64,000 nucleotides of DNA from an uncultured Planctomycetaceae bacterium (GTDB lineage: Bacteria; Planctomycetota; Planctomycetia; Isosphaerales; Isosphaeraceae), in assembly GCA_963833985.1 (NCBI GenBank), contig CAWIAD010000002.1:2240001-2304000 (forward strand), written 5' to 3'. Both the position numbers and the translations under genes were made by a program. Shown piece after piece: positions 35,104-59,262 of this stretch. The notes under the pieces are model-generated. The model ran no database searches and was not told the origin of the DNA. It saw nothing but the letters and a program-made list of their open reading frames with translations. The first letter of the stretch is position 1; each line of letters opens with the position of its first letter.

Positions 35104-35538
35104 ATGCTCGTCCGCGATATCCTGGAGTCCAAGGGGAGGCAGATCATCTCGATCGATCCCGAAGCGACGGTTCATGAAGCGATTGCCCGGCTGGTGCAGA
35201 ACAATATCGGATCGCTGCCCGTCGTCGATCACAATGGCCGGATGGTGGGAATCTTCGCCGAGCGCGACGTCCTCCGGATCATTCATAATCGAGGTGAAAA
35301 CTTCGGTCGAATGCGGATCTCGGACGTGATGACTCCGGATCCGATCACCTGCGATGTCGTCGATGACGTCAATGACGTCATGGGCCAGATGAGCGAGCGG
35401 AGGATCGCCAAGGTTCCCGTGGTTCATGACGGTACGCTCGTGGGTATCATCTCCGTGGGCGACGTCATCAAGGTCATGTATGAGAAGGTCGCGACCGAGA
35501 ACCACCACCTCCTCTCGTACATCCAGGGGGCCGTCTAG
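35104..35538 (+). CDS. CBS domain pair protein
   Basis: GGAGG RBS; MLVRDILESKG, NIGSLPVVD, GIFAERD, VGIISVGDVIK. Confidence 0.9.
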   Translation: MLVRDILESKGRQIISIDPEATVHEAIARLVQNNIGSLPVVDHNGRMVGIFAERDVLRIIHNRGENFGRMRISDVMTPDPITCDVVDDVNDVMGQMSERRIAKVPVVHDGTLVGIISVGDVIKVMYEKVATENHHLLSYIQGAV

Positions 35539-37287: not shown

Positions 37288-37388
37288 GAACTCAAACTCC
37301 TTGCCAGGAACGAACCATCGTGCCCGACAGGCATCGATCACTCAAGATCGCATCGCACGGAAAGCGGCGCGCGCTCGCCGCGACGGCT

Positions 37389-38192
37389 TCAGGCACTATT
37401 TTCATGAAGGAACCGCTTGAGCTCGGCGCGGAAGGCGCTCTTGGCCTCCACGTGCGGCAGGTGCCCGACCTCCGGCAGAACCACCATGCGAGCATGGCTC
37501 AGGCCCTCGGCAAGCTGGGCAGCCACGCGCGGGGGGTTCACCAGGTCCAGCGCACCGACGAGCACCAGGCAGGGTACCTCGATCTGGTCGATGCGGCTGC
37601 GCGTGTCGTGGTCGGCCGCGGCGCGGGCCTGCCGGGCGAACGCGTCGGCATCCTGCGGCCAGCGGTTGTGCTCGGCGAAGCGGACCAGGCCCTCGACCTG
37701 GCTGGGGTGCTGGTAGAAGGCCGGAGCCACCAGCCAGGGAAGGGTCGCCCGGGTGAACACCTCGATCGGAACCTGCCGGCGCAGCAGCGTCCATGACTCG
37801 ATCACGGCCTTGCGCCAGGCGTCGCCGCCGGCATGGGTCGATGCCAGGACCAGGCTGCGGACGCGCCGGGGATGCCGCAGCGCCAGCTCCTGGGCCACCA
37901 GGCCGCCAAGCGAGTGCCCGACGATGTTCGCCGCCGGTGCGCCGAGGGCTTCCAGCCAGCCCGCAACGTCGCCGGCCATGTCGGACGTGGTGTAGGGGCC
38001 GCTGAACCGATCGCTCTGGCCGACGTCGCGGGAATCGAACGCCAGCGTGCGATAGCGCGGGCCAAAGTGCTTCTGGGCCAGTCCGAACGCCCGATGGTCG
38101 CCGCCCAGGCCGCTCAGGAACACCAGCGGCTCACCTTCTGGGCTGGTTTCCTCGAAGTAAAACGAGTGCGAGTTCACCACAATTCTGGGCAT
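37389..38192 (-). CDS. Alpha/beta hydrolase (enol-lactonase/esterase-like)
   Basis: [33 protein letters not shown]. Confidence 0.87.
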
Positions 38193-38350
38193 CGCGAAGA
38201 AATCCACTAAGATGGACATTCGAAGGAAAAGTGGCCGGAACGATGGAGGTCGTGGCTTCCAGAGTATCCTGGATGGCCCTGACGCGCGAACTCGTCCCGG
38301 TGAGCCCGGTCCTGAATCCACCGGGATTCTCAGCGTAGATTGTCTCTCTC

Positions 38351-39415
38351 ATGAATTTAGAACAATGCGATCCGGACGACGGTGTCCGTGCGGGGGTTGA
38401 ACGCCTTCCGCTGGTCGTGTGCACGTCGATCATCAAGGAGTCGTCGTGGCGCTGGTTCGCCCCACGATTCCCGCGTATCCGCTGGGAGTTCTACGGTCCC
38501 CGGCCGCGGAACTGGCTGGAGCGGAAGATTCAGCGTCCGGCGCTGGCACACTGGCGCAGTTGCTGGGAATCCGTCCATGCTGCCGCCCGCGCACCCGCGG
38601 CTCTCCTCGTCTCGCATGACGCACGGATCACGTTTCGCTGTGCCCAGGCAGCGCGGTTGCAGCGCGCTGCGCGTTCCGCACGTCGCCTGGGGCTTCAATT
38701 ACACAACGCTGCCGCGCGGCCCACTCCGCGGGCTGATGGCGCGGTCGTTCACTTCCGTCGATCGCTTCATCACGTATTCGTCCATGGAGCGATCGCTTTA
38801 CTCGGGGTATTTCGACATTGATCCCGCGCGTATCGACGTGGTTCTCTGGGGAGTAGGACCACCCCAGGTCGAACCGGCCGACCAGCCACTGGAAACCGGC
38901 GACTACATCTGTGCCCTGGGCGGCAACGCGCGTGATTACCGCACGCTGTTCGCGGCGATGGCCCGTCTTCCCGAGATCCCGCTCGTCGCCGTGCTGCGGC
39001 CGGAGAATGTCGCGGGTCTGGAAGTTCCAGCCAACGTCCGCCTCCTCCACAACATCCCCGGCGGAGCCGCCAACAACATCCTCAGGTTCTCCCGGTTCAT
39101 GGTGCTGCCGCTGGCGGGCTCCGAGGTTCCTTGCGGTCACGTGACCCTGGTCGCGGCGATGCACCTGGGCAAGACGATGGTCATCACGAACTCCGAGGGC
39201 GTCTCCGATTACGTGCAGGACGGTGTGAACAGCCTGCTGGTCCCTCCCGGCGACGCCGCATCCCTGGCCGAGCGCCTGCGCGAGCTCTGGAACGACCCGG
39301 CGCGCTGCTGCGCATGAGCGAGGCGGGCCGCCAGTTCGCCGCCGTCCACTGCTCGGAGGAGCCGGTTGTGAACCACCTGCGGCAAGTGCTAACTGACCTC
39401 GGATTGCCGGTGTAG
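38351..39415 (+). CDS. GT-B family 4 glycosyltransferase (frameshifts near 38665 and 39310)
   Basis: GGNARDY, GHVTLVAAMHLGK, DYVQDGVNSLLVPPGDAASLAE. Confidence 0.8.
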
Positions 39416-40344
39416 GGCCTGTCGCGAATCGACCTTCTGTTTCTGGAGAAACCTCTCGATCAGGTCGGACATTGCCTCGCGTTCGTCTTCCAGCAGGTAA
39501 TGGCCCGCCTTGTCGAAGCGGTGGACCTCGGCGTGCGGAAAACGCCTGGTCCACTCGTCCAGGAAGTGATGGTCGAAGACGAAGTCGCGCATGCCCCAGC
39601 CGATGAGCATGGGAATCGATGCAAGCTGGTCGAGCCGGCTCTGCACCCATGAGACCAGCTCATACGACCTGTCGCCGGGCCGGAGCGGAATGTCCTGCAC
39701 AAACCGGAGGATCGCGATCCGGTTTTCCCACGAATCATACGGAGCGATATAAGCCCGTCGCAGGTCGCGCGGCAGCCTCCAGCGCGTACAGCCGATCACG
39801 GCCGTGCCGCGTGCGAAGGCGTTCAGGCCGCGGACCATCCAGGCGCCCAGCGCCGAGTTCCGGCAGATGCCGAGCGCCCAGGGGAGCGACTTGGCGGCGG
39901 GCATGTGGAAGGCTGCCGTGTTCATGACCACCAGCCGGGCGATCCGCTCGGGATGCCGCGCCGCGTAGGTCATGCCGATCATGCCGCCCCAGTCGTGCAG
40001 GACGAGGGTGACCTGGCGGGTCACACCCAGATGGTCGAGCAAGGCCTCCAGGTCATCGGCACGGCTGGCCAGAGTATAGGCATAATGTGCATCATCCGGC
40101 TTGTCGGAGAGTCCGCAGCCAACGTGGTCGGGCACGATGGTGCGGTAAGCCGTGCTGAGCCGCTCGACGAGCCGCCGGTAGTGGAACGACCAGGTGGGGT
40201 TGCCGTGGACCATGATCACAGGCTCGCCCTGGCCCTCGTCGAGGTAGTGGAGCCTGATTCCCGAGCGGTCGAAGTCGCGGCCGGGATGGGCGGCGAGGAA
40301 GGCATCGAGTTCGCGCGAGACCCGCGCCTGAGGGGTTGCGTCAC
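39389..40344 (-). CDS. oleB: OleB-like haloalkane dehalogenase-family hydrolase (beta-lactone decarboxylase type); start out of frame
   Basis: LHYLDEGQG, HGNPTWSF, PDHVGCGLSDKP, LHDWGG, DFVFD, GHYLLED; immediately after oleA. Confidence 0.8.
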
Positions 40345-40345
40345 G

Positions 40346-41397
40346 TCACCAGTCCACGCCCAGCATCAGGCAGTTCAGCCCGCTGCCGATGCCCAGGAAG
40401 GCCACGCGGTGGCCGGGCTGCACCACCTCGCGATCCTCGGCCAGCGCCGCGGTGAGGGGAAGCGACACCGTGCCGATGTTCCCCAGGTAGGGGAAGGTTG
40501 AATAATCCTTGTCGGTCGCGATGCCCAGCGAGCCAAGGATCGTGTCGCGATGCGAGGCACCCACCTGGTGGCAGATCACCCGGTCGATCTGCGGCCTCTG
40601 CCAGCCCAGCGTGCTCAGGAATGCCTGCCAGGTGCGGGTGCCCAGCTCGACGCCATGGGTGAGCACGGCCGCCGAGTCCGTCGAGGTGAATTGCAGGAAC
40701 TGGTGCGGAAGCTCCGCCTCGACGGCCTCGATCCCCCAGCGGCAGAGGCCGTGAAACTGAGGAGCCGACTGCATCGCTCCGCCGGCGAGCCGGTGTCTCG
40801 TCGCGCGGGAGAACGAGCCATCGGAGAGCAGCACGGCCACGGCGCCCGAACCGCCCGTGAGCGTTGCCAGCGACCGTTTGAAGAATTCCATGCTCCGGTC
40901 CTGGCACATCCGCTCGATCATGATGTCGTTGATCTCGCGGGCGGTCTCGCTCGCCACCACCAGCCCCGCGCGGATCTGCCCGAGCTCGATCCGGTTGGCG
41001 ACCTCGACCATGCCGTTGAGCACTCCCAGGCAAGCGTTGCTGATGTCGTAGACGCTGGCCGCGCCCGGATTCCCAGTTCGTGGGCGATCCGGCAGGCTGT
41101 GGCCGGCTCGAAATACTCGCGGCAGACGCCGCCGTAGATCAGCGCGCCGATCTGTTCGGCTCGGATATCGGCGCCTTCGAGTGCGCGGCGGGCCGCCACC
41201 GCGGCCCCCTCGGAAAGCCGGTAGCCCTCTTCCCACCAGCGCCGTTCGACGATTCCGGTGAGGGCCTCGAGCTGTCCCGTGCTCAGGTGCAGCGATTCGT
41301 AGACGGGCTCGAGCCGGGCCTCCAGCTCGGCGGATGAGACCACCACGGGGGCCAGCTCGTAGCCGATCGCTTCCAGGTAAACCTTCGAGTAACGCAT
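40346..41397 (-). CDS. oleA: OleA-like thiolase-fold condensing enzyme, frameshifted near 41065
   Basis: TGIVERRWW, FEPATA (Glu), DISNACLG (Cys), ATLTGGSGA, CHQVG (His), LGNIGTVSLP (Asn), LGIGSGLNC. Confidence 0.85.
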
Positions 41398-41420
41398 CAA
41401 GCCAGTTTCGCCCACCGTGG

Positions 41421-44400
41421 TCAATTCACGCCGGTCGGAGCGTTCTCGTTCGCGTCCATCCGGAGAGTGAAATCCTTCATCTGATAGATGACCTTGCCAT
41501 CCACGAGCAGATGACCATCCGCCTTCAGCCACCGCCGCGCGTCGTCGCGGCCGGTGATCACCGCCCGGGTCTCCACCTGCCGGTTCGCCGCCAGGACCTG
41601 GCCGCGGTAGACCCAGGAGTGCGGGTCTGCCAGCCCCGGCGACTCGAACCGGGCACCCGCCTCTCTACCCCAGAACTCCAAGGCCATGACTTTAAGCAGT
41701 TGCAGCAACGATTCCAACCCCAATGATCCGGGCCAGACCGGATCGCCCAGGAAGTGCGCCTCGAAAAACCATGCGGCCGGATCCACGTCGATGGACCCGT
41801 TGATGACGCCGAGTTTCTGCGGCCCGCCGTCACGGACCAGGGAGTCGATGCGCTGGACCATGCGCCACCGCGGGTCGGGCAGGGGGGATTGATCGGGCAA
41901 CGGGAACGCCAGCGCCGCGGCGCGTTCCGCCTCCGTCAACGCATACGGCGCCGCGTCGCGGATGCCCACCTGTTCGGCCAGCGCCTCGGGATGGAAGAAC
42001 CCAAAATAGGTGGTTCCTTCGAACACGAGTTCCTGGCGGCACGAGACGCGGAACTCGTAATGCTGGAGGATCATGCCGGCTGAACGGGTGATCTGTGTGG
42101 CCTTGACCTCCGTCGTGAGCGTGCCGGATGTGGGACCAAGCAGGGCACGCTGGCAGGCCGTCCCTCCCAGGTTCCGGAACTTGAGGGGACGGTCGCTGGC
42201 CAGCGCCGAGCCCATGTAGGCGGAGACCCACCCGCATGCCTGGAGCGCCGCCTCCAGCAGCACGGCGTAGGGCACGCGGTCTTGCCGGTCGGCCTGGAAG
42301 TACCATGCGTCCGGCGGGATGTCGTATTCCGCCACGGCGGAAGTGCCTGCCGCCATGGTCCATGCGTCCCCCTGCACGCCGACGATCCGGTCCAGGAACG
42401 AGTAGGGGGGCCGGGGCAGCCGGGCAATGAACCGGCCGTCGTCGAAGACGCGATAGCGATCGCCGAAGCCTGCCGACGGCTTGCCCGTGGCAAATGCGAG
42501 GATCTGTTCCTTGCCATAAAGGACCGGCGCTGCGGCCGGCGCCGGCTCGCGACAGGGCTTCCAGAGCTGCTCCAGCTCGCTCCGGCTCGTTCCCGAGAGC
42601 CTTAGGGCCATATCGCTGATCTCGACGATCGGCTTGCCATCGGCGTACATGAGCGCATCGGCAATGGCGAACGGTTCCGGGCCGTAGCCCAGCTCCTTGA
42701 CCGTCACCTCGTAGACCACTTTCCGGGTGGACTCGACGACCTGCCCGCGGCACCGCAAGCGGTTGGCCACGCCCGGCAAGGGCTCGTAAGCGACGCGCCC
42801 GTTCTGGCCGATCCAGCCAAGACGCATCAGCAAGATGCGCAGGGTGTGCAGACAGCACTCGTACATCAAGGTCCCCGGCATCACGCGGTCGTCCACGAAG
42901 TGGCAGACCATGAACCAGTCGCCGGGGTGGATGTCCGCCTCGGCGCGGATCAGACCCAGGCCGAACCGGCCGCCGGTCGGGTTCAGCTCCAGCACGCGGT
43001 GGACCAGCGTCATGCGTCCGCCGGGCAAGGGCAGAGGATCGCGCAGGTTGATCCGGTCGAAGGGTGCTCCGAATGCGCCGGAGAGGTCACCCCGGCGGAG
43101 GGCCTCGATCTGGCCGTCGTCGAGCACCTGTGCTTGTTGCGGAACCAGGTCGGTCCAGTCGGCGGGCTTGACTCCGGCGCGAGGCCGCGCATCGAGCGGC
43201 CGGGGCACCACGCCCTTGCCCGCCGCAAGCTCCGCGGCCGAGAAGAAGCCCGCGCAGCCATCGCGCATCGACAGGAGGGGCTCACCGTCCACAGTGCCGT
43301 CGAACTCGAAGCGGAAGAGGTGCGTCTCGCCCTGGCGGAAAAACCGGGTGATCTTGATGTCGTAACGGATGACCTGGCCAGGCCCCGGCAAGGCGCGGTG
43401 GAACGTGACGGTGGCATCCAGCAGGCGGTACACCGCCAGTCCCTGCGTGACGAGGTCGATGCCGAGGAAGGCCGAGAGGAACAGATCCGCCTGCCCCGAC
43501 TCGATCGCGATGGACGGAGGGATCTTGCCGGCGTCGAGATACCAGTCGCCCGGCAGGATGTCGTGCTCGGTGACAACGCGCCCGTGGGAAAGCGACCGGG
43601 GCTCGCCCTCGATCGCCGTGATCCGGTCCACCAGCATGAGCGGCTCGTCAGGGAGGCGGACGCGCGTGGGATGCCCGTCGATCGGGGCGAAGTCCGGTCC
43701 CAGCACGCGGGCGATCGAGCCGATGGCGAACTCCAGGCACTGGCTGCGGTCCAGCACGCACGCGGTGGCTTCCGCCGCAGCAATCGCTCCCAGCGACGGG
43801 CCATCCCGTTCCCTGGACTGCTGCGTGCCAGCGAGTCTCTCCGCCAGACTGATCTGGTGTGCCAGACCCTCGCTCATGAGGGCGACGAAACGGCTCGAGA
43901 CCTCCAGGTAAGCCCCGTGGGCGCCGGCGGTGGCGGCCTCCATCCTGGCCAGTTGCTCGACAAGAGGCGGCAGCTCATGCGCTGCCGGCTGTGCCTGTGC
44001 CTGTACCTGTACCCGTGCCTGCGCCTGTACCAGCGCCGGCGTCGGCGTCGCTTCCCTTGGCGGCACCGGCCGCGGGCGCGGGGGGGCCGCGGAGCTTTCT
44101 TCCGCGATGCCGAACACGGGGGTCCGCGCCGTCTTGGCTCTGCGGCGGCGTGGCAGCGGAGGGAACTGCGGGGGCCTGGGCCCGGGCGGTACGGTGATCC
44201 GGCGGCCGTTCCGGGAGATCGTCTCCTCGGTTTCGCGGAGCAGGTCGGCCGCGGATGTCGGCGCTCCGTGGAGTGATTGCAGGTTGACGGGAATACGCCA
44301 TGCGATCAGCCGGCCGAGGGTTTCGAGCACGGTCTCCAGGGCGTCGCGGGCGGGGGCACACACGGCGTGCGCCAGGTGCGGCCTGCCGGCGAGGATCCGT

Positions 44401-47400
44401 CCCATCAGCCGGGTGCACGAGCCGCCAGGCCCGATCTCCAGAAACACCCGGAACCCGTCCGCGTAGGCCTGATCGATGACCGCGGGGAAATCGACGACCT
44501 GCGTCGCCTGGGCCGTGATCGCATCGGCGGCCAGGTTACGGTCCGGCCGATACGCTCGGGAACTCACTCCACTGTAGAAGACCAGGTCCGCGGGCGACTC
44601 CGTGGGGTGGTCGTGCAGGGCTCGGTACTCCTGCTCCACGGCGCGGCCAATCTCGCAGTGCACCGTGCTCACCATCGGCAGCTCGAGGAACGAGCACCCC
44701 AGGGCGGCGACAACCGCGCGGACCGCGGCCCGCTGGCCGCCGATCACCGTTTCCTCGGAAGTGTTCCTGATCAGGACGTAGACCCGTGCACGACCGCGGA
44801 GTGCCGTTTCGACCAGGGCGGCCGTGCGCGGGACGATGCCGGCCACCCAGTCCACCGGCTCCGCGGGATCAAGATTCCAGACCCTTTGCGCCGCGAGGCA
44901 AGGACCGGCCAGCTCGGTGGCGAACAGGGGCGACGCCAGAAGTGCTTGCGCCAGCAAATCCCGATCGGTCCACGCGCCGAGCGCCACCAGGGCCGCCGAT
45001 TCGCCCATGCTGTAGCCAATGGCTCCTTGCGGCCGCACTCCCAGGCTCAGGAGCAGGTCGGTCACCAGGCTGCCAACGGCCACCTGGCTGAGGATCGACT
45101 GGCGGTGATCCACGACGCGCGGAGGCACATCCGCGTTCCACCAGGCGTCGGTCGCAAGCTGAGCGCGCAGCGAGCGGCTGCGTTCCTCCTGGCTGCGATA
45201 GACCTGCGGCCAGAGCGCCGAGAGAGCGCGTCCCATGCCCGGAAAGCCGTTCCCGAGCCCGGGGTAGACGAAGGCGACTCGAGCGGCTGCACCTCGCGGC
45301 GGGCCGGGAGAAATGACGAGTGGCTCCCCGGGTCCGCCCATGGCCGTGCCGCGATCGTGAGCTTCCGCGATCGTCCGCCGGAGCTCCGCGAGACCGCGGC
45401 GCAGCATCGCCGGCGAGGCCGCGATCACCGCCGCGCCCAGCTCCCGGCGGAATCCAGCGGGGACTGCTCGTGCCAGCGGCGGGCGAGTGCCTCGATCGGC
45501 GCGTCTTCATTCGGCCCGGCCAGCGCCTCGAGCCGCTCGATCCGTTCCCGCAGACCTGCCCGATCGTCCGCCTCCAGGGCGAACAGCGCCAGCGCGCGCG
45601 CACCAAGCGGCTGCGCACGCTCGGTCTCCAGCACGCCGGTCGGTTGCCGGCCGTCGTTCACGGCCTCGAGCGTGACAGTCTGTGCCGTGCCGCCCAGCCC
45701 GCGGGTTCGGACCTGCGCCGTGCGCGGGCCTTCGGCAGGGTCGCCCAGCCAGAACTGCGGCTCGACCGGGGCCGTTCCCGGACCCTTGTGCCCGGGAATC
45801 ATCTGCTGGTAGACGCACAGGGACGCCCGGACGACCGCGGCGAGTGCGGTCGCTGCGCCCGGTCGGCCGATCGCCGCCTCCACCGAGCCGATGCTGCCGT
45901 GCGAGGAGAGGATCGTCTCATCGGCCTCGGCCGGGCCGATCGCTGACCGCGTGACTGCCTGCGCCTCGCGAATCGCCGCGTACACCCGGTCGCCGTCGCG
46001 GCATGCGTCGTCCAGGCGCTTGAGCACCAGCGCGGCTGCGCCTTCGCCAGGACTGTGGAGCGTTCCGATGCGGCTGGCCGCAAGCACCGCGCGGAGGTCG
46101 CCGGCCAGATCGACCGCTCCGACGATGGCTGTGTCAAGCTGTCCCCGTTGCAGCATGTCCACGGCCACCTGGAGAGCCTGGGTACCCGAATTCTCGTCGC
46201 AAGAGACCGAGAAGCTGGGCCCGCCGATGCGGTACTCGCGGGCGATCCGGCTGGCCACCAGCCCGCCCAGCGAGCCCATCGTCCGGTTCGCCGAGAGCGC
46301 GGGGCTGACCGCCTGCTGGAGCGAGTCGATCCACGCTTCGAGGTCGACGTCGGTGAGCTCGAGCCCGAGCCGGCGGTTCCAGGCCGCGGCCTGCGCGACG
46401 ATCCACCAGCGAAGCTGGTAATTGTTGGTGTTCTGATCGAGCCCAAGGCCGATGAGCACGCCGCTCCTCGGGCTCAAGCGGCCGGCACCGCCCGCGTTCT
46501 CGATGGCATCGGCGGCCACCTCGAGCATGAGCGACTGCTGGGGGAGCATCTCTTCCAGCTCACGCGGGGGGATCCGGAACCGGCCGGCCCTCAGGCGCAG
46601 GGCGTCCAGGTAATGGCCAGGGAACCTGGAGGGCTCCAGCGACGAGTCGTGGCCGGCTGCTTCTGTCCCCGGTACGACCCACCAGCGCCCATCAGGCGGC
46701 GGGGCCGCGGATCTTGAGCGTGTGAGAACCTGCTGCTGGAACGCGCGCAGATCGGCCACGCCGCCGAACCGGGCCGCCATGCCCACGATCGCCACGGGCC
46801 TGGTCGCCTGGGGCGTGCCGAGGCGCGATCGGCGCCCGGAGTGCGGGCCTCGGTCGCTGCGACCAGCGGGCTCGATCCACTCCTCGATCAAGACGTGTGC
46901 GTTGATGCCGCCGAAGCCGAAGCCGGAGAGCGCGGCGCGGCGCGGCAGGGCGGGGTCGCGGCGCGGCCACGGCTCGGGCGAGGTCAGGACCCTGAAGGCG
47001 CTCCCCCAAGTTCCAGCCGGGGGGCCGTGGCGGTCAGATTGGCCGTCGGCGGCAGAATCCCGTGTTTCAGCGCCAGCAGCAGCTTGACCAGGCCCGCGGC
47101 TCCGGCCGCGGTGAGCATGTGGCCCACGTTCGATTTCACCGAGCCGATCACGCACTGGCCGGGCCGCCAGTTGCCGTCCGGATCGCCCCAGAGTTGCCGC
47201 AGGCTGGCGACTTCCACCGCGTCGCCCAGCGGCGTGCCGGTCGCGTGGCATTCCAACAGGTCCACGTCCCACGGGCTCCATGCCGCTTGCTCATAGGCCG
47301 CCCGGAGGGCACGAAGCTGGCCCTCGGAGCTGGGAGCCAGCAGATCGCCCTGCACGTCGTTGGACAGGCCGATGCCCCGGATCACCGCGTGAATCGTGTC

Positions 47401-48223
47401 GCCGGCCGCGATGGCATCGTCCAGCCGTTTCAGCACGAATAACCCGGCGCCCTCGCCGACGACCAGGCCGTCGGCGGCCGCGTCGAAGGGCGCGGGCGTG
47501 CCGCTTGCGGAGAGCGCCCGGAGCTGTGTGAAACCCATCTGCGTGTAGAGCGGATCGGGCCGGGAGACACCACCGGTGAGCATGAGATCCGCTCGACCTG
47601 ATTGCAGCTCGTCACTGGCAAGCTTGAGCGCGTAGAGCGACGAGGCGCAGGCTGCGTCGAGCGTGAACTGGACGCCGCCCAGACCAAGGGCCTGGGCCAC
47701 CAGCGCCGCGGGAAGGCCTGCCGGAAAGGCGTCGAGGGGCTCCGTCCTGCCCGTGGCAGGATCGTCCACCCCGAGCGCTTTCTCGATGAACGCGCCGAGG
47801 ACTTCCCGCGAGTGCGCCGAAGAGCCCTCCGTGGGGAGGACGATGTTGCCGAAGATCACGCCCGAGCGGCTGCGGTCCACGCCTTCGGTGCGCGGCCGAG
47901 CTCCAGGCCATCCGTGCCCCACGCAGGACCAGCCGGAAGACGGGGTCGAGACGACCGACCAGGCCGGGGTCCAGGTTCAGGCCGTCGAGATCGCAAGCGA
48001 GCTCGCCGACGAAGCCGCCTCGGGTGGAAATCACCCGGTCGGGCCGCGGTCCTTCAGGGTCGCAGGCGCACAACGGATCGAGCAGCCAGCGGCCGGCGGG
48101 TACTTCCGTGGTGGCATCCACGGCCCCGACGATGTTCGCCCAGAATTGATCCGGCCCGCCGGCTCCGGGGAAGGTCCCCCCGTAGCCGACGATGGCGATT
48201 GCTGCGTCGTCTGGCGTGCTCAT
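41421..48223 (-). CDS. pfaC: PUFA synthase PfaB/C-type fused subunit: KS-CLF-AT-FabA-like DH domains (frameshifts near 47895, 47005, 45440)
   Basis: KS DAACASS/HATGT/GHMLTAAG; second KS-like domain lacking the Cys motif; AT GYSMG; DH motifs HFVDDRVMPG and HFLGDPVWPG; four ORFs in series. Confidence 0.85.
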
Positions 48224-48240
48224 GGCGGCCCGGGCCTCGA

Positions 48241-51200
48241 TCAGCTCGAGGCGGTTTCAAGTTGTGAGAGACGGTTGCGGCGGAATGCGTGGTTGAGCGC
48301 GGAGTCGATCACGCACTCGTAGCCTTCAATGCGTGCCACCAGCTTCCCCTCCGCGTCGACAAGCTCGATGTCGGCCACGGCCCGGTGCCTGGAGTGGTCG
48401 CGCACGCTGGCAAGGACTCGAACGCCCTGGGCGGGAAACGCCTTGCGGAACTGGCGGTACGCTCCAATCGCAGTGGGCAGCGAATTGGATCCCAGGTGTT
48501 CGCGGGTCCACAGTACCACCAGCTGAAAGGCCGCGTCGATAGCCAGCGGATCGGTGATCCAGGAGCGCCGCAAGGGACGCTCGATCCACGCGGCCGGCGG
48601 CGGCGACGTCGCGGCCCAGCCTGCGATCAGGCCGTCATTCCAGCCGTCGATGCGCTGGATCGCCTGCATGGCCGGCCCATGGAAAAGCACCCGGCGATAG
48701 ATCTCCGCGTGCTCGGTGGCCGTGGGAGCAAGCCGGGTTTCGCAGATCAGCCGCTCTCCGGCAGGGTACTGGGCCGCGAGCATCACGCTACCGCGCGCGT
48801 GGGTGATCTCGCGGCCGCTCCCGAGCATGCCGCGGAGCTCCACGGTCGCCAGGATCGAGGCGTTGCCCCGGGGCTGGCCCTTGTCCGCGCGGAGCGAGAC
48901 CGTCACGGCCCTTTGGTCACGCAGCACCACACCCTTGTGCAGCTTGACGTTTTCCACGCTCTGCACCACCAACCCCGGATGCCGGTGCGCCGCGGTTTCG
49001 GCCAGCCATTCCAGGATCAGCGCCATGGGCAGTACGGCGTGGCCATCAATGACATGGTCGCGCAGTACCGGCAGAGCATCCATGTCGATGCGCCGCTCGA
49101 AGACCGGCTCGAGGTGAGTCGTCGGGCGAGGTTCCAGCGCGGGTGCGGCCGTCGGGGAATGGCCGTGTCCGTGCGTCCTGGCGGACGCGGCGTCCGGCTC
49201 GCTGGCGGCCCTGGCCAGCACCACAAGCTCCACGGGAAGCTCAGCGCCCTTCTGGATCTCATGGACGAGCAACCTGGCTCCGTCGCCAGGCGGAATCAGG
49301 CCCAGGCCCTCGCGCTCGAACATGGGCTTGAGCGCGGCGGTGACCATGCCGCCGTCCCAGGGGCCCCAGTTGAACGCCACGACCCGGCAGGACGACAGCT
49401 CACGGGCCAGCTTCTGAGCAAACTTGTTGAGCCACTCGTTGGCGGCGGCATACGCTGCCTGGCCGGTGCGGCCGAACCGCGCCGTGGACGAGGAGAACAC
49501 GGCCAGAAATCGCAATTGCTGCGGGTCCACGGCTTCCATGAGCGACCACAGTCCGTCCACCTTCGTGTCGAAGACCTGCGCGAACTGGGAGTCCGTGAGG
49601 TCCTCGATCCGCCTGTCCGCGAGGACCCCCGCGCCGTGGACCAGACCGCGTACCGGCCCGGCTTGCCGGCACACCGCGGCCAGCAGCCCGTGCACCGCCT
49701 CTCGGTCGCGGACGTCGACGGCGTGATAGCTGACCTCGGCACCCGCCTCCGCAATCCGCTTCAGATTGCCGCGGATCTCCCGCTGAGACAGGATCAGCCG
49801 CAGGTGCTCGTTCACGGCCTGGGGCGGGCACGGTTTCTCGGCATGCTCGAGGATCGCCCTGCGGATCGCGGCTTCGCTCGGGAGCCCGGCCAGCCAGGCT
49901 GGCTCCTCGCCTGGTTCCGGCGTGCGGCCCAGCAGCACCAGCCGCGGCCGGCTCGACCGGGCAAGCTCCAGGGCGGCCTCCGCCGTGATGCCCCGAGCTC
50001 CGCCGCTGATCACCACGACGTCGCCTTCTCGAAGCCCGGGCGGAGGCGTTTCCTCGCGCTGGGGGCGGACATGCGGCACCAGCTCGACTCCGTAGGTGGA
50101 GCGGGCGGTCAACCCGACCTCGACCGGGCCCCCGGAAAAGAGCTCGGTGACGAGCCGGTCGGCGGCCTCCGGACTCTGGAACGACGCGTCCAGGTCCACG
50201 GCCTTGCAGTGCACCTCGGGCCATTCGTGGCTTGCCGTTTTCGTGAGCCCCGCAAGCGCGCCCGAGACGGGGTTGATGGATCCGGCCAGGCCGTTCAGAC
50301 CCAGGAGACCGTCCAGGCGGGAAACGGTCATCAGCACCGCCCCACCGCGCTCCGCTTGCCGTCTCAGTGCCGGACCCGCGGTACGAATGAGCCGGAATGC
50401 GTGCTTGACCAGGTCGACCCCTGCTGCCGAAGGCGGTGCAAGGAGGATCATGCCCGCCAGGTTGTCGGCCGGCGCAGGCGTGGCGGCGTCGTGGTCGATC
50501 ACCTGAACCTCGTGTCCCAGGCCGGTGAGCCGATGAACCAGCGCCGGGGTCAGCGGGCTCCGGTCGTCGACCAGCCACAAAAGGCTTCCGGGGGGAAGGG
50601 CCAGACGCTCGCGACGATGCGGATCGGCCAGCGGCCGCGCGTGCGGCACGAGGCATTCGAGCGTCGCATGGACTGGCCCGGCCGCCGGTGCAGAGGCCGG
50701 GGCTGCTGCCGCGGGAGCGGGTTCGGGCGCCTGAGCAGCTCGGCCTTCCTCCGCGGGGACCGATGGGGTGCCCGTTGGATGGTCGAGGAATCCGGCGATC
50801 TGTCGGAGCGTGCGGAGAGTGCCAAGCTGTTCGGGCCCGACGAGTGGTGCATCGGGGAGCCTGTCCTGGATGGCGGAGAGGATCTCGACGCGTTTGATGG
50901 AGTCGATGCCGAGGTCATCGTCCAGCATCATGTCGAGCTCGAGCATCTCGGCGGGGTAGCCGGTCTTCTCCGCCACCACCTCGAGGAGCACGGCGGTGCA
51001 GTGGGCGGCATGGTCCATCGTGTGCTGGTCGCCGTTGCGGGAGGGAGAACTCGTGGCGGATGTGAAAGCGGCTGTGGCCGCGTGCGCGGGTTGCGGATGG
51101 TCGAGGAATCCGGCGATCTGTCGGAGCGTGCGGAGAGTGCCAAGCTGTTCGGGCCCGACGAGTGGTGCATCGGGGAGCCTGTCCTGGATGGCGGAGAGGA

Positions 51201-54200
51201 TCTCGACGCGTTTGATGGAGTCGATGCCGAGGTCATCGTCCAGCATCATGTCGAGCTCGAGCATCTCGGCGGGGTAGCCGGTCTTCTCCGCCACCACCTC
51301 CAGGAGTACGGCGGTGCAGTGGGCGGCATGGTCCATCGTGTGCTGGTCGCCGTTGCGGGAGGGAGAACTCGTGGCGGATGTGAAAGCGGCTGTGGCCGCG
51401 TGCGCGGGTTGCGGATGGTCGAGGAATCCGGCGATCTGTCGGAGCGTGCGGAGAGTGCCAAGCTGTTCGGGCCCGACGAGTGGTGCATCGGGGAGCCTGT
51501 CCTGGATGGCGGAGAGGATCTCGACGCGTTTGATGGAGTCGATGCCGAGGTCATCATCCAGCAGCATGTCGAGCTCGAGCATCTCGACGGGGTACCCGGT
51601 CTTCTCCGCCACCACCTCCAGGAGTGCCGGTACGACATGGGGTTGAGCATGCGGGGCAGGCCGGTCTGGCCCGCTTGCCGGTCCGTGCATGGCGGCTTCC
51701 GCGCCTTGCGAATGAGCCCGGCCGTTCACCGCTTCGAGGGCGCCCCTGTGATCCTTGGCTTCCGTGAGTTTGAGCGGCGGAGCGACCGCAAGGTCTCGAC
51801 CTGCCAGCACCGCGGGCGCGGCAGGTTCCGGCGGGCTGCTGGGGAAAGCAGCGCTCTGGCCGAGCATGGTCGCGGTGAGCCGATGCTGCCTTTCGAGCAG
51901 GGACTGGAAGGTCTGCTGGGTTGCGGCCTGCCCTTCCAGAAACTGGCGGTGCAACTGTGCCGTCTGCTCGGCCAGTCGCTGTAGCGCGAGCAGGTTGTCC
52001 TGGGTCTGGCGGAGGGCCAGGCCCAGCGCGGTCTGGCCGGAGGCCGGCATGGGTTCAAAGTGTGCTGCCGTCGCCGTGGCCCGAGCCGGGACAGCGGCCG
52101 CCGTGGCCCGTGCGGCTGTGGAACCTGAGGCGGGCTTTCCGTTGCCGTCAGACTGCATGTTCAGCTCGGAAGGTTTCATGGTCCGCTCGAAAGAAACAGG
52201 CTCACCGGCGTGGTGATGGCCGTCGGCATGCTGCGGCTGTGCCGCGGTCGCAAGAATCTTCGGCGCTCGATCCCGCGCCGCCGCCGCCGGCCGCTCACCG
52301 GTCGAGGGCGCGGTGACTTCCGGCACCCCGCGCGGGCCGGTAGCGGTCGTCGCGAGCGCAGTCCGTGCGGTCCGGGACGGTGTGGGATGGGCGCCAGAGA
52401 CCTTGACTGTCAGGCTCTTCCGCCTCGCCGCCGGCGGGGACGCGGGCGCGGGAAGGGCATCATCCCAGCGAGAGAGCTTGACGGGGAAGCCGAGCGCGGC
52501 CAGCCGCGCCAGGGCCAGGGCCAGTCCGATGAGGTCTTCGTCCTCGCCGTCTCCGGCGGAGCCCTGGACGGCGATGGCATGGTGTTCCCGGCCATCGAGG
52601 ATCGACCGCACCAGTCCGGTCAACCGGGTCCCCGGTCCCACTTCCAGAAACGTATGGGCCCCCATCTGGTACATCGCCTCGACCTGGGCCACGAATTCCA
52701 CGGGCCGCGCGAGCTGTCCGGCCAGTAGGTCCCGGGCCGCTTCCGGATCGGCGGGGTAGGGGGCAGCCGTGCTGTTGCTCATGACGGGAAGCGTACCGGG
52801 TTTGACCTCGATGCTCGTCAGGAAGTCGCGCAGACCGGCCTCGGCCCGGGCCACCAGACGGCTGTGGAACGCGGCCGAAACCGCCAGCGGCGTCGTCCTC
52901 ACCCCGGCATCGCCCAGCAGCGTCGCCGCGCGTGCCATTTCCGCCGAAGGCCCGGCGAGGACGCACTGGGCCGGAGCGTTCTTGTTGGCGACGACCACGT
53001 CCAGGGCGTACTCCTCGATCAGCCTTGCCACCTGCTCCAGCGGTGCGAGGACCGCCAGCATGGCCCCGGGGTCGCCGTCCCCCGCGCACCCGGCCATGAG
53101 AGCGCCTCGGCGCCGCGAGAGCCGGGCCAGCGCCTCGGCGTCGAGCCGGCCGGCCGCGTGCAGTGCGGTCAATTCGCCGAAGCTGTGCCCTCCAACGAGT
53201 GCGGGGCGGACGCCGAAATCCTCGAGGATCCGCCACAGCCCCACCGACACCGCGCCCAGCGCAGGCTGAGCGAAACGGGTGTCGCGCAGCATTTCGTGCT
53301 GCCGGCGGCGGTCGTCATCCCGGAAACAAGACGGCGGATAGATCAGGTCGCTCAGCCTTGGCTCGCCGTCGCCGGCCAGGCCGTTCCAGAGCGCCAGTGC
53401 GTCCTGCATGTGCGGGAACCGGCAGGCCAGGTCGCAGAACATGCCCACGGCCTGGGATCCCTGGCCCGGAAAGAGCATCGCCAGCGCGCCGCGCTGCGGG
53501 CCGGAACCCATGGAAACCGAGCGAGCGGCGGCCCCGTCGAGGCCGGTGCCTCGCAGGTCCCCGGTCGTTGCCGGCCGGGTGCGGCCGTGTGCGACCTGCT
53601 CGAGCTTCTCCGCGGCTGCCGCCATCAGCCTCGCGGGCTTGAGCCCTCCCCGCCGGCACACAACGAGCACCCGGAACCCGTGCTCGGCGCGAAACGACCC
53701 GCGGCTCTGAGCCGCTTCCTGCCGCACCGTGCTCCACTGCGGCTCGTCCTTCCAGCGGGGGAGCCGCTCGGCAAGGCGGACCGGGTCGGCGTCCGAGTAA
53801 GCCAGGATCTGCACATCGCCGCCCCAGTCGATGGCGGCCGGTTCCGGGCCGGCCTCCTCCAGCAGGCAATGAAAATTGCTGCCGCCGAACCCGAAGGCGC
53901 TGACCGCCGCTCGGCGAGGGTGGCCGCCGCCGGGCAGCCACGGCCGGCTGCTGGCGTTCACGTAGAAGGGCGAGGTCCCCGAGGCGAGCGACTCGATCGG
54001 TTGCTCCACCTTGATCGTCGGCGGCAAGACCTTGTGGTGCAGCGCCAGGGCCGCCTTGATCAGCCCCGCGGCACCCGCGGCCGCCTTGGTATGGCCCACC
54101 TGCGACTTCACGGACCCCAGCGCGCACCACGGCCCGCCCGCGCCGGCTTGCCGGTACACCTGCTCGAGCGCTTCCAGCTCGATCGCATCGCCCACCCGCG

Positions 54201-55320
54201 TGCCCGTGCCGTGGGCCTCCACCAGCTCGATCGACCGTGGCGATACGCCGGCCAGCTCGTACGCCTGACGCAACGCCTTCACCTGCCCGGCAGCGCTCGG
54301 CGCGTAAACGGCCTGGCCCTTGCCGTCGCTCGATGTCCCCATCGACCGGATCACCGCGTAGATGCGGTCGCCGTCGCGGCGGGCGTCGGCCAGCCGCTTC
54401 AGCACCATGATCCCCAGGCCCTCGCCCAGCGTCGTGCCGTCGGCCGAGGCGTCGAACGGCCGGGCGTCGCCGGAGGGGGACAGCGCGGGCGTCTTGCTGA
54501 AGCACATGTACATGAAAATGTCATTGAACGTATCTAGCCCTCCGGAGACGGCAAGGTCGCAGCGTCCGGCGGCCAGCTCGAGCATGGCCAGGTTCACCGC
54601 GCCAAGCGAGCTGGCGCAGGCGGCGTCGACAACGCAGTTGGTGCCCCCCAGGTCCAGGCGATTGGCGATCCGGCCGGCGGCCACATTCCCCAGCAGGCCG
54701 GGAAACGAGCTCTCCTGCCAGCCGACGTACGAATCGGCGATGCGGCGGACGACGTTTTCGGTCGTTGCCTCATCGACACCCTCTGCTTCCAGGGCGCGGC
54801 GCCAGATGGGGTGCCCCAGCCTGGCACCCAGGGGAATGACCAGCTCGAGGGTTCCGGTCACCCCCAGGATCACGCTCACGCGGTCTCGCGCATGCTCGCG
54901 GTTGGGGCCATACCCGGCGTCGTTCAGGGCGTCGCGGGCCACCAGCAGTCCCAGAAGCTGCGTCGTGTCGGTCGCGTCCACGGTGTGTGGGGCGATGCCG
55001 AAATCGAGCAGCGGAAAATCGACCGGTGTCAGGAAACCGCCCCGCCGCGCATAGGTCCGGTCGGCGGCCTTGGGGTCGTTGTGCCAGTAGTCCTCGGGCC
55101 GCCAGTGGGTCGGCGGAATCTCCGTGATGGCATCCACACGGTTACGGATATTCAACCAGAAGCGGGCCAGGTCGTCGGCCATGGGGAACATGCAGCCCAT
55201 TCCGATGATGGCCACCGGAACGGGTTGCGGGGAATCGGCTTCAGTCAAGTCAGTTCCCTTTCGAGCGTCGCAGCGGGCAGGATGATGGCGTGGACCCTGG
55301 GACGTTATCGGTTCGCGCAA
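48241..55320 (-). CDS. pfaA: PUFA synthase PfaA: KS-MAT-3xACP-KR-DH (start uncertain)
   Basis: DAACASS, HGTGT, GHTKAAAG, FPGQGSQ, GHSFG, AFHS, three EKTGYP..LGIDSIKRVEI ACPs, SGGARGIT, YAAAN, HVIDG..LP. Confidence 0.93.
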   Translation of the reverse strand: MREPITSQGPRHHPARCDARKGTDLTEADSPQPVPVAIIGMGCMFPMADDLARFWLNIRNRVDAITEIPPTHWRPEDYWHNDPKAADRTYARRGGFLTPVDFPLLDFGIAPHTVDATDTTQLLGLLVARDALNDAGYGPNREHARDRVSVILGVTGTLELVIPLGARLGHPIWRRALEAEGVDEATTENVVRRIADSYVGWQESSFPGLLGNVAAGRIANRLDLGGTNCVVDAACASSLGAVNLAMLELAAGRCDLAVSGGLDTFNDIFMYMCFSKTPALSPSGDARPFDASADGTTLGEGLGIMVLKRLADARRDGDRIYAVIRSMGTSSDGKGQAVYAPSAAGQVKALRQAYELAGVSPRSIELVEAHGTGTRVGDAIELEALEQVYRQAGAGGPWCALGSVKSQVGHTKAAAGAAGLIKAALALHHKVLPPTIKVEQPIESLASGTSPFYVNASSRPWLPGGGHPRRAAVSAFGFGGSNFHCLLEEAGPEPAAIDWGGDVQILAYSDADPVRLAERLPRWKDEPQWSTVRQEAAQSRGSFRAEHGFRVLVVCRRGGLKPARLMAAAAEKLEQVAHGRTRPATTGDLRGTGLDGAAARSVSMGSGPQRGALAMLFPGQGSQAVGMFCDLACRFPHMQDALALWNGLAGDGEPRLSDLIYPPSCFRDDDRRRQHEMLRDTRFAQPALGAVSVGLWRILEDFGVRPALVGGHSFGELTALHAAGRLDAEALARLSRRRGALMAGCAGDGDPGAMLAVLAPLEQVARLIEEYALDVVVANKNAPAQCVLAGPSAEMARAATLLGDAGVRTTPLAVSAAFHSRLVARAEAGLRDFLTSIEVKPGTLPVMSNSTAAPYPADPEAARDLLAGQLARPVEFVAQVEAMYQMGAHTFLEVGPGTRLTGLVRSILDGREHHAIAVQGSAGDGEDEDLIGLALALARLAALGFPVKLSRWDDALPAPASPPAARRKSLTVKVSGAHPTPSRTARTALATTATGPRGVPEVTAPSTGERPAAAARDRAPKILATAAQPQHADGHHHAGEPVSFERTMKPSELNMQSDGNGKPASGSTAARATAAAVPARATATAAHFEPMPASGQTALGLALRQTQDNLLALQRLAEQTAQLHRQFLEGQAATQQTFQSLLERQHRLTATMLGQSAAFPSSPPEPAAPAVLAGRDLAVAPPLKLTEAKDHRGALEAVNGRAHSQGAEAAMHGPASGPDRPAPHAQPHVVPALLEVVAEKTGYPVEMLELDMLLDDDLGIDSIKRVEILSAIQDRLPDAPLVGPEQLGTLRTLRQIAGFLDHPQPAHAATAAFTSATSSPSRNGDQHTMDHAAHCTAVLLEVVAEKTGYPAEMLELDMMLDDDLGIDSIKRVEILSAIQDRLPDAPLVGPEQLGTLRTLRQIAGFLDHPQPAHAATAAFTSATSSPSRNGDQHTMDHAAHCTAVLLEVVAEKTGYPAEMLELDMMLDDDLGIDSIKRVEILSAIQDRLPDAPLVGPEQLGTLRTLRQIAGFLDHPTGTPSVPAEEGRAAQAPEPAPAAAAPASAPAAGPVHATLECLVPHARPLADPHRRERLALPPGSLLWLVDDRSPLTPALVHRLTGLGHEVQVIDHDAATPAPADNLAGMILLAPPSAAGVDLVKHAFRLIRTAGPALRRQAERGGAVLMTVSRLDGLLGLNGLAGSINPVSGALAGLTKTASHEWPEVHCKAVDLDASFQSPEAADRLVTELFSGGPVEVGLTARSTYGVELVPHVRPQREETPPPGLREGDVVVISGGARGITAEAALELARSSRPRLVLLGRTPEPGEEPAWLAGLPSEAAIRRAILEHAEKPCPPQAVNEHLRLILSQREIRGNLKRIAEAGAEVSYHAVDVRDREAVHGLLAAVCRQAGPVRGLVHGAGVLADRRIEDLTDSQFAQVFDTKVDGLWSLMEAVDPQQLRFLAVFSSSTARFGRTGQAAYAAANEWLNKFAQKLARELSSCRVVAFNWGPWDGGMVTAALKPMFEREGLGLIPPGDGARLLVHEIQKGAELPVELVVLARAASEPDAASARTHGHGHSPTAAPALEPRPTTHLEPVFERRIDMDALPVLRDHVIDGHAVLPMALILEWLAETAAHRHPGLVVQSVENVKLHKGVVLRDQRAVTVSLRADKGQPRGNASILATVELRGMLGSGREITHARGSVMLAAQYPAGERLICETRLAPTATEHAEIYRRVLFHGPAMQAIQRIDGWNDGLIAGWAATSPPPAAWIERPLRRSWITDPLAIDAAFQLVVLWTREHLGSNSLPTAIGAYRQFRKAFPAQGVRVLASVRDHSRHRAVADIELVDAEGKLVARIEGYECVIDSALNHAFRRNRLSQLETASS
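50777..51622 (-). repeat. Near-identical 318-bp tandem repeats encoding ACP plus linker (~2.7 copies)
   Basis: GGATGGTCGAGGAATCCGGCG recurs with 318-bp period; only a few substitutions between copies. Confidence 0.92.
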
Positions 55321-55331
55321 GAGCCCCTATC

Positions 55332-56966
55332 CTAAGCAGTTCGCGAGCTCTTCTCAATGTTCGCGCGATCCAGGGGGGCCAGTCGCGGCCTCCCAGGCGG
55401 CAGGGCCACACCCTGGGCCGCCAGCATCCGGGCTCGCGTCAGCACGGCCGCACCATGAAGAATATTCAGCGCGACGACCACCACCCGGCGGTTCTCCGGC
55501 TGCTCGAGGAACGAGCCACGCACCCAATCATTGAAGGCCGCCATCGCTGGACCGCACCAGATCTGGTAGTCCAGGTTCCGCCCCGGCTCGCCCGCATTGG
55601 CCCACCGCGAGGACTGACCCAGGTACCAGCGGAAAATCAGTGCCATCTTGTGTTTCGGATCACGCTCGCCGCGCTCGATCTGGCTCGGATCGCGGTTGGC
55701 GAAGAAGGCGCGGGTCTGTTCCCAGATCACGTCCAGGGGCGCACGGAAGAGCGTTTTTTCAAGCATCGCCCGGTCGGACTCGGGTAGCTGCTCCAGGCGC
55801 TCGTGGCTGCGGTACAGCTCGTACAGCTTCGCGGCCCGCATGGCGAACATGGTTCCACGCTTGAGCACCTGGACCTTCACACCCATCTCGAACATGTCGG
55901 CCGCCGGAGCCATGGCAATATCCGCCTGCTGGGCCCTGGCGAGCATCTGCCGCACGGCGTCCGAGGTGCCGGCCTCGGCGCACGCCTGGTTGACCGAGCC
56001 GGTCACCAGGTACGAGGCGCCCATCGCCAGAGCCGCCGCCGCCGACCACGGCGTCGAGATCCCGCCGGCCGCTCCCACTCGCAACGAGCAATCATAATTG
56101 TATTGTGCTTGCATGCGGTCACGCAGGGCGATCATGGTGGGCATGAGCACGATGGCCGGCTGGTTATCGGTATGGCCGCCGGAGTCGGCCTCGGCGGTCA
56201 GGTCTTCCGCCATCGGGATGCGGGCGGCCCAGCCGGCCTGCTCGGGAGTGATGTCGCCCCGGTGCACCAGCTCCTGGAGCGTGCGCTCCGGCGGAGGCGC
56301 CAGGAACTTGCTGGCGACCTCGACCCGGGATACCTTGGCGATGACCCGGTTGGGCGCCACGACCTGTCCCTGTCCGTTGCGCTGGATGCCGCTCACGCGG
56401 TACCTCACCAGCGGCAGGGTGAGATCGAGGTAGGCCGAAGCTTCGACCAGTCGAATTCCCCGGCGCAGGTAAAGATCGACGATCGCCGCCTCGTGCGCCG
56501 ATTCCTGAGGACTATGGATCAGGTTGAAGCCGAACGGATAGCGGCCGCCCGAGCCGCGGACGACGCGGTCAATGGCGTGGTCGACGGCGGCAACCGAGAG
56601 CCCGGCCGCTCCGAAGATCCCCAGCATCCCGCCCTTACCCATCGCCTCGACGACCTCGACCGAGGCAATTCCGTTGGCCATGGCACCGGCCATGCAGGCC
56701 AGCCTCGTCCCGTGCGCGGCGCGAAACGAGGGATCGCCCAGTTGTTCCAGCGGACAGGCTGGAACAAAGGCGACAAGATGCTCAAGGTCCAGGGCCGACG
56801 CGGCCGCCAGCGGCCCCATCACCAGATCGGCGGCGCCCCCGCGGTTCACGACCAGAAACGGATCGGCCACCGCGCCGATGGCACGGTCGATGGATTGGTA
56901 AAACTCATCGCTCGAGTGCAGCTCCACAGTCGCGCTCCGCCTACAAACGCCGCGACGCACGGACAC
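55332..56966 (-). CDS. pfaD: PUFA synthase enoyl reductase PfaD (start uncertain)
   Basis: GAMANGIAS, EASAY, AKVSRVEVA, EADSGGHTD, GSVNQ, MAPAADMFEMGVKVQVLKRG, YQIWCGPAM. Confidence 0.93.
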   Translation of the reverse strand: MSVRRGVCRRSATVELHSSDEFYQSIDRAIGAVADPFLVVNRGGAADLVMGPLAAASALDLEHLVAFVPACPLEQLGDPSFRAAHGTRLACMAGAMANGIASVEVVEAMGKGGMLGIFGAAGLSVAAVDHAIDRVVRGSGGRYPFGFNLIHSPQESAHEAAIVDLYLRRGIRLVEASAYLDLTLPLVRYRVSGIQRNGQGQVVAPNRVIAKVSRVEVASKFLAPPPERTLQELVHRGDITPEQAGWAARIPMAEDLTAEADSGGHTDNQPAIVLMPTMIALRDRMQAQYNYDCSLRVGAAGGISTPWSAAAALAMGASYLVTGSVNQACAEAGTSDAVRQMLARAQQADIAMAPAADMFEMGVKVQVLKRGTMFAMRAAKLYELYRSHERLEQLPESDRAMLEKTLFRAPLDVIWEQTRAFFANRDPSQIERGERDPKHKMALIFRWYLGQSSRWANAGEPGRNLDYQIWCGPAMAAFNDWVRGSFLEQPENRRVVVVALNILHGAAVLTRARMLAAQGVALPPGRPRLAPLDRANIEKSSRTA

Positions 56967-57282: not shown

Positions 57283-57693
57283 ATGGATAATGTAATCCCG
57301 ATCCATCACGGCCAACGCCCGCGGGGGCAACTGGCGGACGCCGCACTGACCCCGGAGCAACACGCCGCAATCGAGGCGCGTCGTGCCGACCGACCGACCC
57401 TCGCGTACCAGGAGGAACTGGTCCGTGACATCGAGGCGTATCAACAGGAATATCCGCCAGGTGGCGATCCGGAATTGAGCGCGGCCCTTGACGGCCTCCG
57501 TCGAGTACGCGAACAACAGGGTCTGAGCCTGACCGATATGTCCCGGCGGACGGGTATGGACCGTGCCACGATCAGCAAGCTGGAAACAGGCAGGATTGCG
57601 AATCCGACGGTCGCTACGCTGCGAAACTATGCAAGGGCTCTCGGACGCAAGTTAACGTGGACGCTGGAAGAGGCCGAAGTCGGGAAACCGTGA
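57283..57693 (+). CDS. XRE-family HTH protein, putative antitoxin
   Basis: LRRVREQQGLSLTDMSRRTGMDRATISKLETGRIANPTVATLRNYARALG. Confidence 0.87.
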   Translation: MDNVIPIHHGQRPRGQLADAALTPEQHAAIEARRADRPTLAYQEELVRDIEAYQQEYPPGGDPELSAALDGLRRVREQQGLSLTDMSRRTGMDRATISKLETGRIANPTVATLRNYARALGRKLTWTLEEAEVGKP

Positions 57694-58979: not shown

Positions 58980-59262
58980 CGAGTTCTCCCTTCGTGGGCC
59001 AACAAAATACCTTCCGGGCCCCGTGACCTCCGGGGCTCTCATCGTCCGGCAGAATAGACGGTCGGCCGCCTCTTCCGCCAGCGGGTTGAGCATTTGCGTT
59101 GCCACCGGGGGCCTGAGACGGCAAGGCGTGGTCGCAGAGTCATGAACGGGGGTCCGGCTTGTTTCTCGGCAAGGTGGTCAGGACCAAAGCGGCACCGCTC
59201 GAATATGAAGCACATTCCCCGTTGCGCTCGACGCGGCCTGCGATCACGTTCCTGTCCCGGTG

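Follow-up and report, generated by a model that had tools for sequence, protein, structure and literature searches.

A Type I pfa operon joined to oleA-oleB, with oleC-oleD 0.9 Mb away, in an Isosphaeraceae planctomycete: a known pathway probably split by rearrangement

An operon in which the genes of a Pfa synthase run directly into oleA and oleB, and end there, raises the question of whether it encodes a new pathway or one half of a known one. The operon lies within a window of 64 kb, the whole stretch of DNA analyzed here (C2:2,240,001-2,304,000), taken from a 10.16-Mb genome that is assembled in two contigs and is 96% complete. In this window, pfaD, pfaA, a fused pfaBC, oleA, and oleB are co-directional on the minus strand and span positions 39389-56966. 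The intergenic gap between pfaD and pfaA is 11 nt, as counted to the first usable pfaA start, and the following ones are 17, 23, and 1 nt. Hence, the tight co-directional linkage described in a sequence-only reading of the window is confirmed, with gaps of 1-23 nt. Among the ORFs scanned at and beside the cluster, there is no oleC, oleD, or PPTase gene.

The pfa part of the operon is readily assigned. pfaD (55332-56966), encoding the enoyl reductase of the Pfa synthase, is a single open frame; it scores 634.5 bits against TIGR02814 (cut-off 449.25), is 82% identical to a same-genus copy, and carries no frameshift. pfaA (48241-55320) is also a single open frame, of 2359 aa, with the domain order KS-MAT-ACP x3-KR-PS-DH as defined by TIGR02813 (1543.7 bits, cut-off 1010.1) and Pfam domains, and it is unbroken when aligned to a relative. 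Alignment of the junction with that relative places the pfaA start at a TTG, because ATA occupies the position of the relative's ATG. A 318-nt tandem repeat (50777-51625; 2.7 copies, 98% matches) corresponds to the three ACP domains, in which three LGIDSIKR motifs are found. The fused pfaBC (41421-48223; KS-CLF-AT-DH/DH) is broken into four ORFs by one-base frameshifts near 47890 (+1), 47006 (-1), and 45445 (-1). In frameshift-aware alignments to intact homologues, it matches end to end, across these three breaks, single ORFs of 2275 and 2385 aa from relatives, with 71 and 57% identity. Its AT part alone stays below the cut-off of the PfaB model TIGR02816 (109.6 vs. 144.3). With the PfaBC of Singulisphaera sp. 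GP187 (L003) as query, Geobacteraceae loci match at about 50-55%. As in a Type I secondary lipid synthase, pfaA is of the KS-MAT-multiple ACP-KR kind, pfaB and pfaC are fused, and pfaD is in the cluster.

Catalytic motifs were searched with 28 patterns. Motifs of both KS-type domains, both AT domains, the three ACPs, KR, DH, OleA, and OleB are present, and 27 of the 28 patterns are matched; the exception is one strict DH pattern, and the same DH domain is detected by Pfam PF07977. The earlier statement that the catalytic motifs are intact therefore holds for the motifs themselves, but pfaBC, oleA, and oleB are frameshifted as assembled.

oleA (40346-41397) encodes a thiolase-fold head-to-head condensing enzyme. 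It is interrupted by a single -1 frameshift near 41065, and both pieces match NF006720, the C-terminal one with 312.7 (cut-off 285). The protein is 81% identical to the OleA of Aquisphaera insulae (L008) across all 350 aa, and carries SNACL, CHQVG, and GNIGT, presumably the catalytic Cys, His, and Asn motifs. The last gene, oleB (39389-40344), likely starts with a GTG at 40344. A four-way DNA alignment locates a -1 frameshift near 40315, within the first ten codons; the listed ORF (from 40219) is too short because this frameshift comes right after the likely start. The best relatives of OleB are Isosphaeraceae proteins, and it shares 72 and 80% identity with OleB proteins from pfa-ole loci of Isosphaeraceae, including that of a complete oleABCD operon. 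When aligned to PDB 8ooh, it keeps the HLD-III pentad (Asn, Asp-Trp, Asp, His) in HGNP, HDWGG, DFVF, and GHY, and the numbering of 8ooh fits the pentad given for DhmeA (PMC10503415). Published work places OleB in HLD subfamily III as a beta-lactone decarboxylase and describes beta-lactone producers as lacking it (PMC7064751, PMC10503415).

The missing genes are present elsewhere in the genome. A tblastn search with OleC and OleD queries from three operon-linked loci located an oleC-oleD pair on the minus strand of the same contig (C2:3,174,724-3,177,527), about 0.9 Mb from oleB. Each gene occurs once, adjacent to the other; the proteins are 64 and 74% identical to those of A. insulae, and the next-best matches in the genome do not exceed 30 and 35%, respectively. 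OleC passes NF006754 (658.9 bits, cut-off 478), and the best NCBIfam matches of the relocated pair are OleC and OleD models. Narrower cut-offs are missed (OleC 609.6 and 582.6 vs. 900 and 850; OleD 438.3 vs. 580), but these belong to Xanthomonas and Shewanella models that operon-linked Singulisphaera proteins miss as well. Trees with 33 rows apiece place OleC and OleD inside a 12-row clade of same-genus and A. insulae sequences (support 92/100 for OleD; SH-aLRT 100 for OleC in a quick tree), where they group with cluster-linked OleC and OleD of the same genus and lie far from two paralogues of the genome itself. Within oleC, a +1 and a -1 frameshift compensate each other and leave about 30-36 codons scrambled. 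As for PPTases, PF01648 has three matches, namely AcpS, a stand-alone Sfp/HetI-like gene on the other contig (C1), and one gene beside a PKS.

The lack of oleC, oleD, and PPTase genes noted by the sequence-only reading is thus real for the window and does not extend to the genome. That reading had proposed a genome-wide search for OleC, OleD, and Sfp/PfaE, and had named canonical oleC and oleD elsewhere, together with the known C31 polyolefin as the only product, as the outcome that would make the locus a split version of the known pathway; on the genomic side, canonical-type genes and three PPTase matches are what the search found. Because these genes lie elsewhere in the genome, the locus is best seen as one part of a divided but otherwise ordinary pathway rather than as a new one. 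The alternative that it had also raised, of a Pfa-to-Ole line with oleC and oleD acting in trans, is supported by the presence of both genes and by their orthology in the trees.

Our main reading, to which we give a probability of roughly 0.78, is that a Type I pfa operon joined to oleA-oleB works together with oleC-oleD 0.9 Mb away, and that the assembly likely makes a C31 polyunsaturated alkene of the hentriacontanonaene type. Activation of the three PfaA ACPs would fall to the stand-alone Sfp-type PPTase and, by analogy with work on Shewanella, PfaA, PfaBC, and PfaD would assemble a polyunsaturated C16 acyl chain. OleA would then receive two such chains from the ACPs and join them in a head-to-head condensation. 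The resulting beta-keto acid would be reduced by OleD and closed to a beta-lactone by OleC, and OleB would decarboxylate the lactone to the alkene; if the separated genes are expressed, the proteins would act in trans. The locus accordingly adds one more genome to a described pathway, and illustrates that absence from a 64-kb window does not amount to absence from the genome.

This reading depends on how the frameshifts are interpreted. They could be real, in which case the set would consist of recent pseudogenes, the pathway would be dead, and the split would have occurred under relaxed selection. Three of the five genes carry a total of five one-base frameshifts, with two more in oleC. In addition, oleA is frameshifted in three of the six other genomes aligned, at other places or in another kind (one base in G011 and G010, three frameshifts in G024), such that oleA may have decayed in some relatives. 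Against this, frameshift-aware alignments reveal no in-frame stop in any cluster gene, and the rate of breaks is that of the genome. Indeed, 85 other genes (110.5 kb), when aligned to relatives, contain 21 frame switches, distributed over 18 of them (0.19 per kb), and a smaller sample has 4 switches in 15 genes. The switches were counted between BLAST pieces, a method that misses compensated and terminal indels, so that only four of the five frameshifts of the cluster are comparable; for its 17.6 kb, 3.3 switches are expected and 4 are seen (P for at least 4 = 0.43). The same kind of break affects the sole argS of the genome, which is split by a one-base insertion and is a single frame in all four relatives searched. 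rpoB is unbroken, and hence not every long gene is affected. Finally, dN/dS values are 0.12 for oleA, 0.14 for oleB, 0.17 for oleC, 0.15 for oleD, and 0.24 for pfaBC, with 0.10 for argS. These values indicate purifying selection on both halves of the pathway, although a very recent loss would leave no trace in them. Since the rate in the cluster equals the background and argS is broken too, the one-base frameshifts are likely assembly errors, and a dead gene set is unlikely.

The genes around the split tell how it may have arisen. Beyond oleB, and convergent with it, lies a GT4-type glycosyltransferase gene on the plus strand (38351-39317; Pfam PF13692/PF00534), itself with one frameshift. It is followed by a rearrangement junction (38275-38350), the left flank of which corresponds to the tRNA-Glu side in relatives and the right flank to the oleC side, and by a PcaD-like alpha/beta hydrolase gene on the minus strand (37389-38321), which is outside the pathway and serves as a marker of the rearrangement. 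Both OleA and OleC are found in 11 of 13 same-genus genomes. oleC is within about 500 bp of oleB in four of these genomes (G004, G008, G012, and G013), and DNA is inserted between the two genes in two others (about 2 kb in G002, about 9 kb in G005). G010 has its oleAB and oleCD halves on two large contigs; four more genomes are cut by contig ends, yet other DNA precedes oleC in them. The glycosyltransferase gene adjoins oleB in G005 and oleC in G011 and G003, and therefore marks an insertion between oleB and oleC. Its presence at this boundary is a feature of a subgroup of the genus.

In 8 of the 13 same-genus genomes, the hydrolase gene is less than 400 bp from tRNA-Glu. In the genome studied, it is oleC that tRNA-Glu precedes, at a partner junction outside the window (about C2:3,177,516-3,177,690). 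The relatives' pairs, oleC with the glycosyltransferase gene and the hydrolase gene with tRNA-Glu, are thus exchanged here for hydrolase with glycosyltransferase and oleC with tRNA-Glu, a swap of the kind that an inversion would give. In G002, a single stretch of 95 kb carries pfa-oleAB, oleCD with its downstream block, a malQ-hydrolase block, tRNA-Glu, and argS, and these blocks map in the genome studied to 2.28-2.30, 3.12-3.18, 2.27-2.28, and 3.18 Mb of C2. We infer that the glycosyltransferase gene was inserted first, and that oleCD was then carried away by two successive inversions, one of about 55 kb and a larger one after it. The locus would thereby offer a clean small example of operon break-up by insertion followed by inversion at a tRNA-Glu gene.

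Could the split instead be a misjoin of the assembly, with oleB, the glycosyltransferase gene, and oleCD still adjacent in the living cell and the pathway ordinary in its gene order too? Neither junction is seen in any of the 13 same-genus genomes, and the assembly has many indels. However, both junctions lie in single-copy DNA and no repeat is found at either of them, which argues against a misjoin. They are also exactly reciprocal and intergenic, and the two halves have separated independently in G010, G005, G002, and Geobacteraceae-type loci. A misjoin is accordingly quite improbable, and the split is most likely a lineage-specific rearrangement of a known system, its exact form being a detail of gene order. 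Among the papers searched, none describes this split in Isosphaeraceae.

A more elaborate possibility is that the distance of oleCD creates two separately controlled halves, giving a switch between ketone (oleCD off) and alkene (oleCD on), and that the glycosyltransferase glycosylates an Ole intermediate to form a polyunsaturated head-to-head glycolipid; we regard this combination as very improbable. In a scan near oleC, no sigma-70-like promoter faces that gene, and the sole sites returned are a promoter-like one directed toward tRNA-Glu and two that are unrelated; promoter and terminator scans of positions 38000-40000 of the window found nothing. Least likely of all is the suggestion of the sequence-only reading that the operon yields a long-chain ketone or beta-keto acid derivative, with OleB serving some other function, for example chain release. 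In its favor, OleA without OleBCD does give a 31:8 ketone by spontaneous decarboxylation (PMC6463001), oleCD is no longer co-transcribed with oleAB, and no consensus promoter faces oleC. Against it, the genome contains orthologous oleC and oleD, both evolving under purifying selection; OleB does not stand out from its group, given the 72-80% identity noted above and its intact pentad; and OleA can take chains without an acyl-CoA synthetase, most likely from ACP (PMC6463001), so that no release enzyme is needed.

pfaBC, oleA, and oleB occur together in 44 of 80 OleB loci, which are best matches, biased to close kin that are not independent of one another. Of these 44 loci, 36 have oleC in the locus, 3 have none within 10 kb, and 5 are too short. 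More generally, oleC is beside oleB in 70 of the 74 informative OleB loci, and the four loci without a nearby oleC all belong to genomes that carry oleC and oleD side by side at another site; in two of them, this site is 12-15 kb from oleA on the same contig, and in the other two it is on a different contig. As this linkage is also known in Geobacter (PMC4882568, PMC3098273), the view of the locus as the best candidate for an undescribed pathway variant does not stand.

At the level of the class, in a genome set that overlaps the locus set and is not summed with it, 216 of 251 genomes contain OleA and 213 contain OleC, and 4 of the 216 OleA-bearing genomes have no strong OleC match. oleA and oleC are more than 100 kb apart in 13 of 18 single-contig genomes, the 18 being those with both positions listed, while genomes with one position listed are left out. 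Some of the genomes with separated ole genes have no pfa (G037) or no pfa beside oleA (three others), and are therefore evidence of frequent scattering of ole genes rather than of recurrence of this same split. None of the four OleA-bearing genomes with no strong OleC match is a pfa-oleAB-only case: in G262, oleC is fragmented and lies beside oleAB, and G027, G126, and G244 have no PfaD match. The ole genes of the genome studied do not form a single oleABCD operon; such contiguity is usual, not required.

Several described systems can be compared with this one. Shulse and Allen describe Type I clusters, in which pfaB and pfaC are fused, from Deltaproteobacteria and the planctomycete Gemmata obscuriglobus; they only suggest that Type I supplies the precursors of hentriacontanonaene (C31:9), and they state that ole genes, often linked to Type I pfa, can lie elsewhere in the genome (PMC3098273). 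In Geobacter bemidjiensis, a C31:9 producer, Yoshida et al. give the tandem order pfaD-A-B-C-oleA-B-C-D-pfaE (PMC4882568). The order pfaD, pfaA, fused pfaBC, oleA, oleB and the three ACPs are the same here as in these Type I systems. In contrast with G. bemidjiensis, oleC-oleD is 0.9 Mb away by a tRNA-Glu gene, no pfaE is in the cluster, and the host is a planctomycete of aerobic type. According to the same 2016 review, production of such hydrocarbons through Pfa and Ole was not yet on record for any aerobic bacterium (PMC4882568), whereas C31:9 is reported from many planctomycetes (PMC3327967, PMC2649909); this wider gap, between the review and the planctomycete reports (PMC4882568, PMC3327967), concerns the family and not the locus.

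The closest counterparts are the pfa-oleABCD loci of Singulisphaera sp. GP187 (L003), A. insulae (L008), and Tundrisphaera (L032), which have the same genes, at 57-81% identity, in the same order as far as oleB. In these three, oleC-oleD comes directly after oleB; here, the glycosyltransferase gene takes that place and oleCD is relocated. In Shewanella, pfa and ole genes work from separate loci, as they would here, the product is C31:9, which is also the likely product here, and OleA is the link between the Pfa and Ole pathways, as reported by Allemann et al., who obtained the ketone with OleA alone (PMC6463001). However, the Shewanella oleABCD genes are together and apart from pfa, whereas the break described here falls inside ole, between B and C. 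Finally, the oleACD clusters of beta-lactone producers (lipstatin type) also have an incomplete ole set, and in one described case oleA and oleC are separated by a glycosyltransferase gene (PMC7064751). According to the same source, those clusters are without oleB genome-wide, whereas all four ole genes are present in the genome studied here.

The start of pfaA may be displaced in the source genome. In the junction alignment (window positions 55310-55320), an ATA codon is found where a relative carries its ATG start, and a TTG located four codons upstream could serve as the pfaA start. Upstream of pfaD are a small gene encoding an HTH protein of the Cro/C1 type (57283-57693) and a DUF2961 gene (57786-59105); a DUF2961 gene is likewise located upstream of pfaD in the same-genus relative G004.

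Three genes of this genome are each split between two frames, namely malQ (window 35535-37341) and, in another stretch (locus L084), a gene that we take to be deoxyhypusine-synthase-like (6181-7312) and the sole copy of argS (13739-15667). These splits belong to the frame switches that occur throughout the genome, at about 0.19 per kb. Elsewhere on the same contig, at 5.83-5.84 Mb (loci L085/L083), a second and unrelated multi-KS PKS region carries its own PPTase-like gene, with a neighbour that is presumably phosphodiesterase/sulfatase-like.

A GT4 glycosyltransferase gene (window 38351-39317), on the strand opposite to the ole genes, lies at the oleB-oleC boundary in the source genome and in three same-genus relatives (G003, G005, and G011). 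Several relatives harbor a second similar gene at another place.

Among the genomes of the class, G027, G244, and G126 (98-100% complete) possess OleA, and no strong OleC match was found in their fragmented assemblies (170-260 contigs). OleD is present in G027 and G244, OleB gave a partial match in G244 and none in G027 or G126, and PfaD had no match in any of them. These genomes may be worth following as candidates for a reduced set of ole genes. In two single-contig genomes, G037 and G032, oleA, oleB, and oleC occupy three separate places. Because the search for PfaD gave no match in G037, its olefin precursors would be supplied by another synthase.
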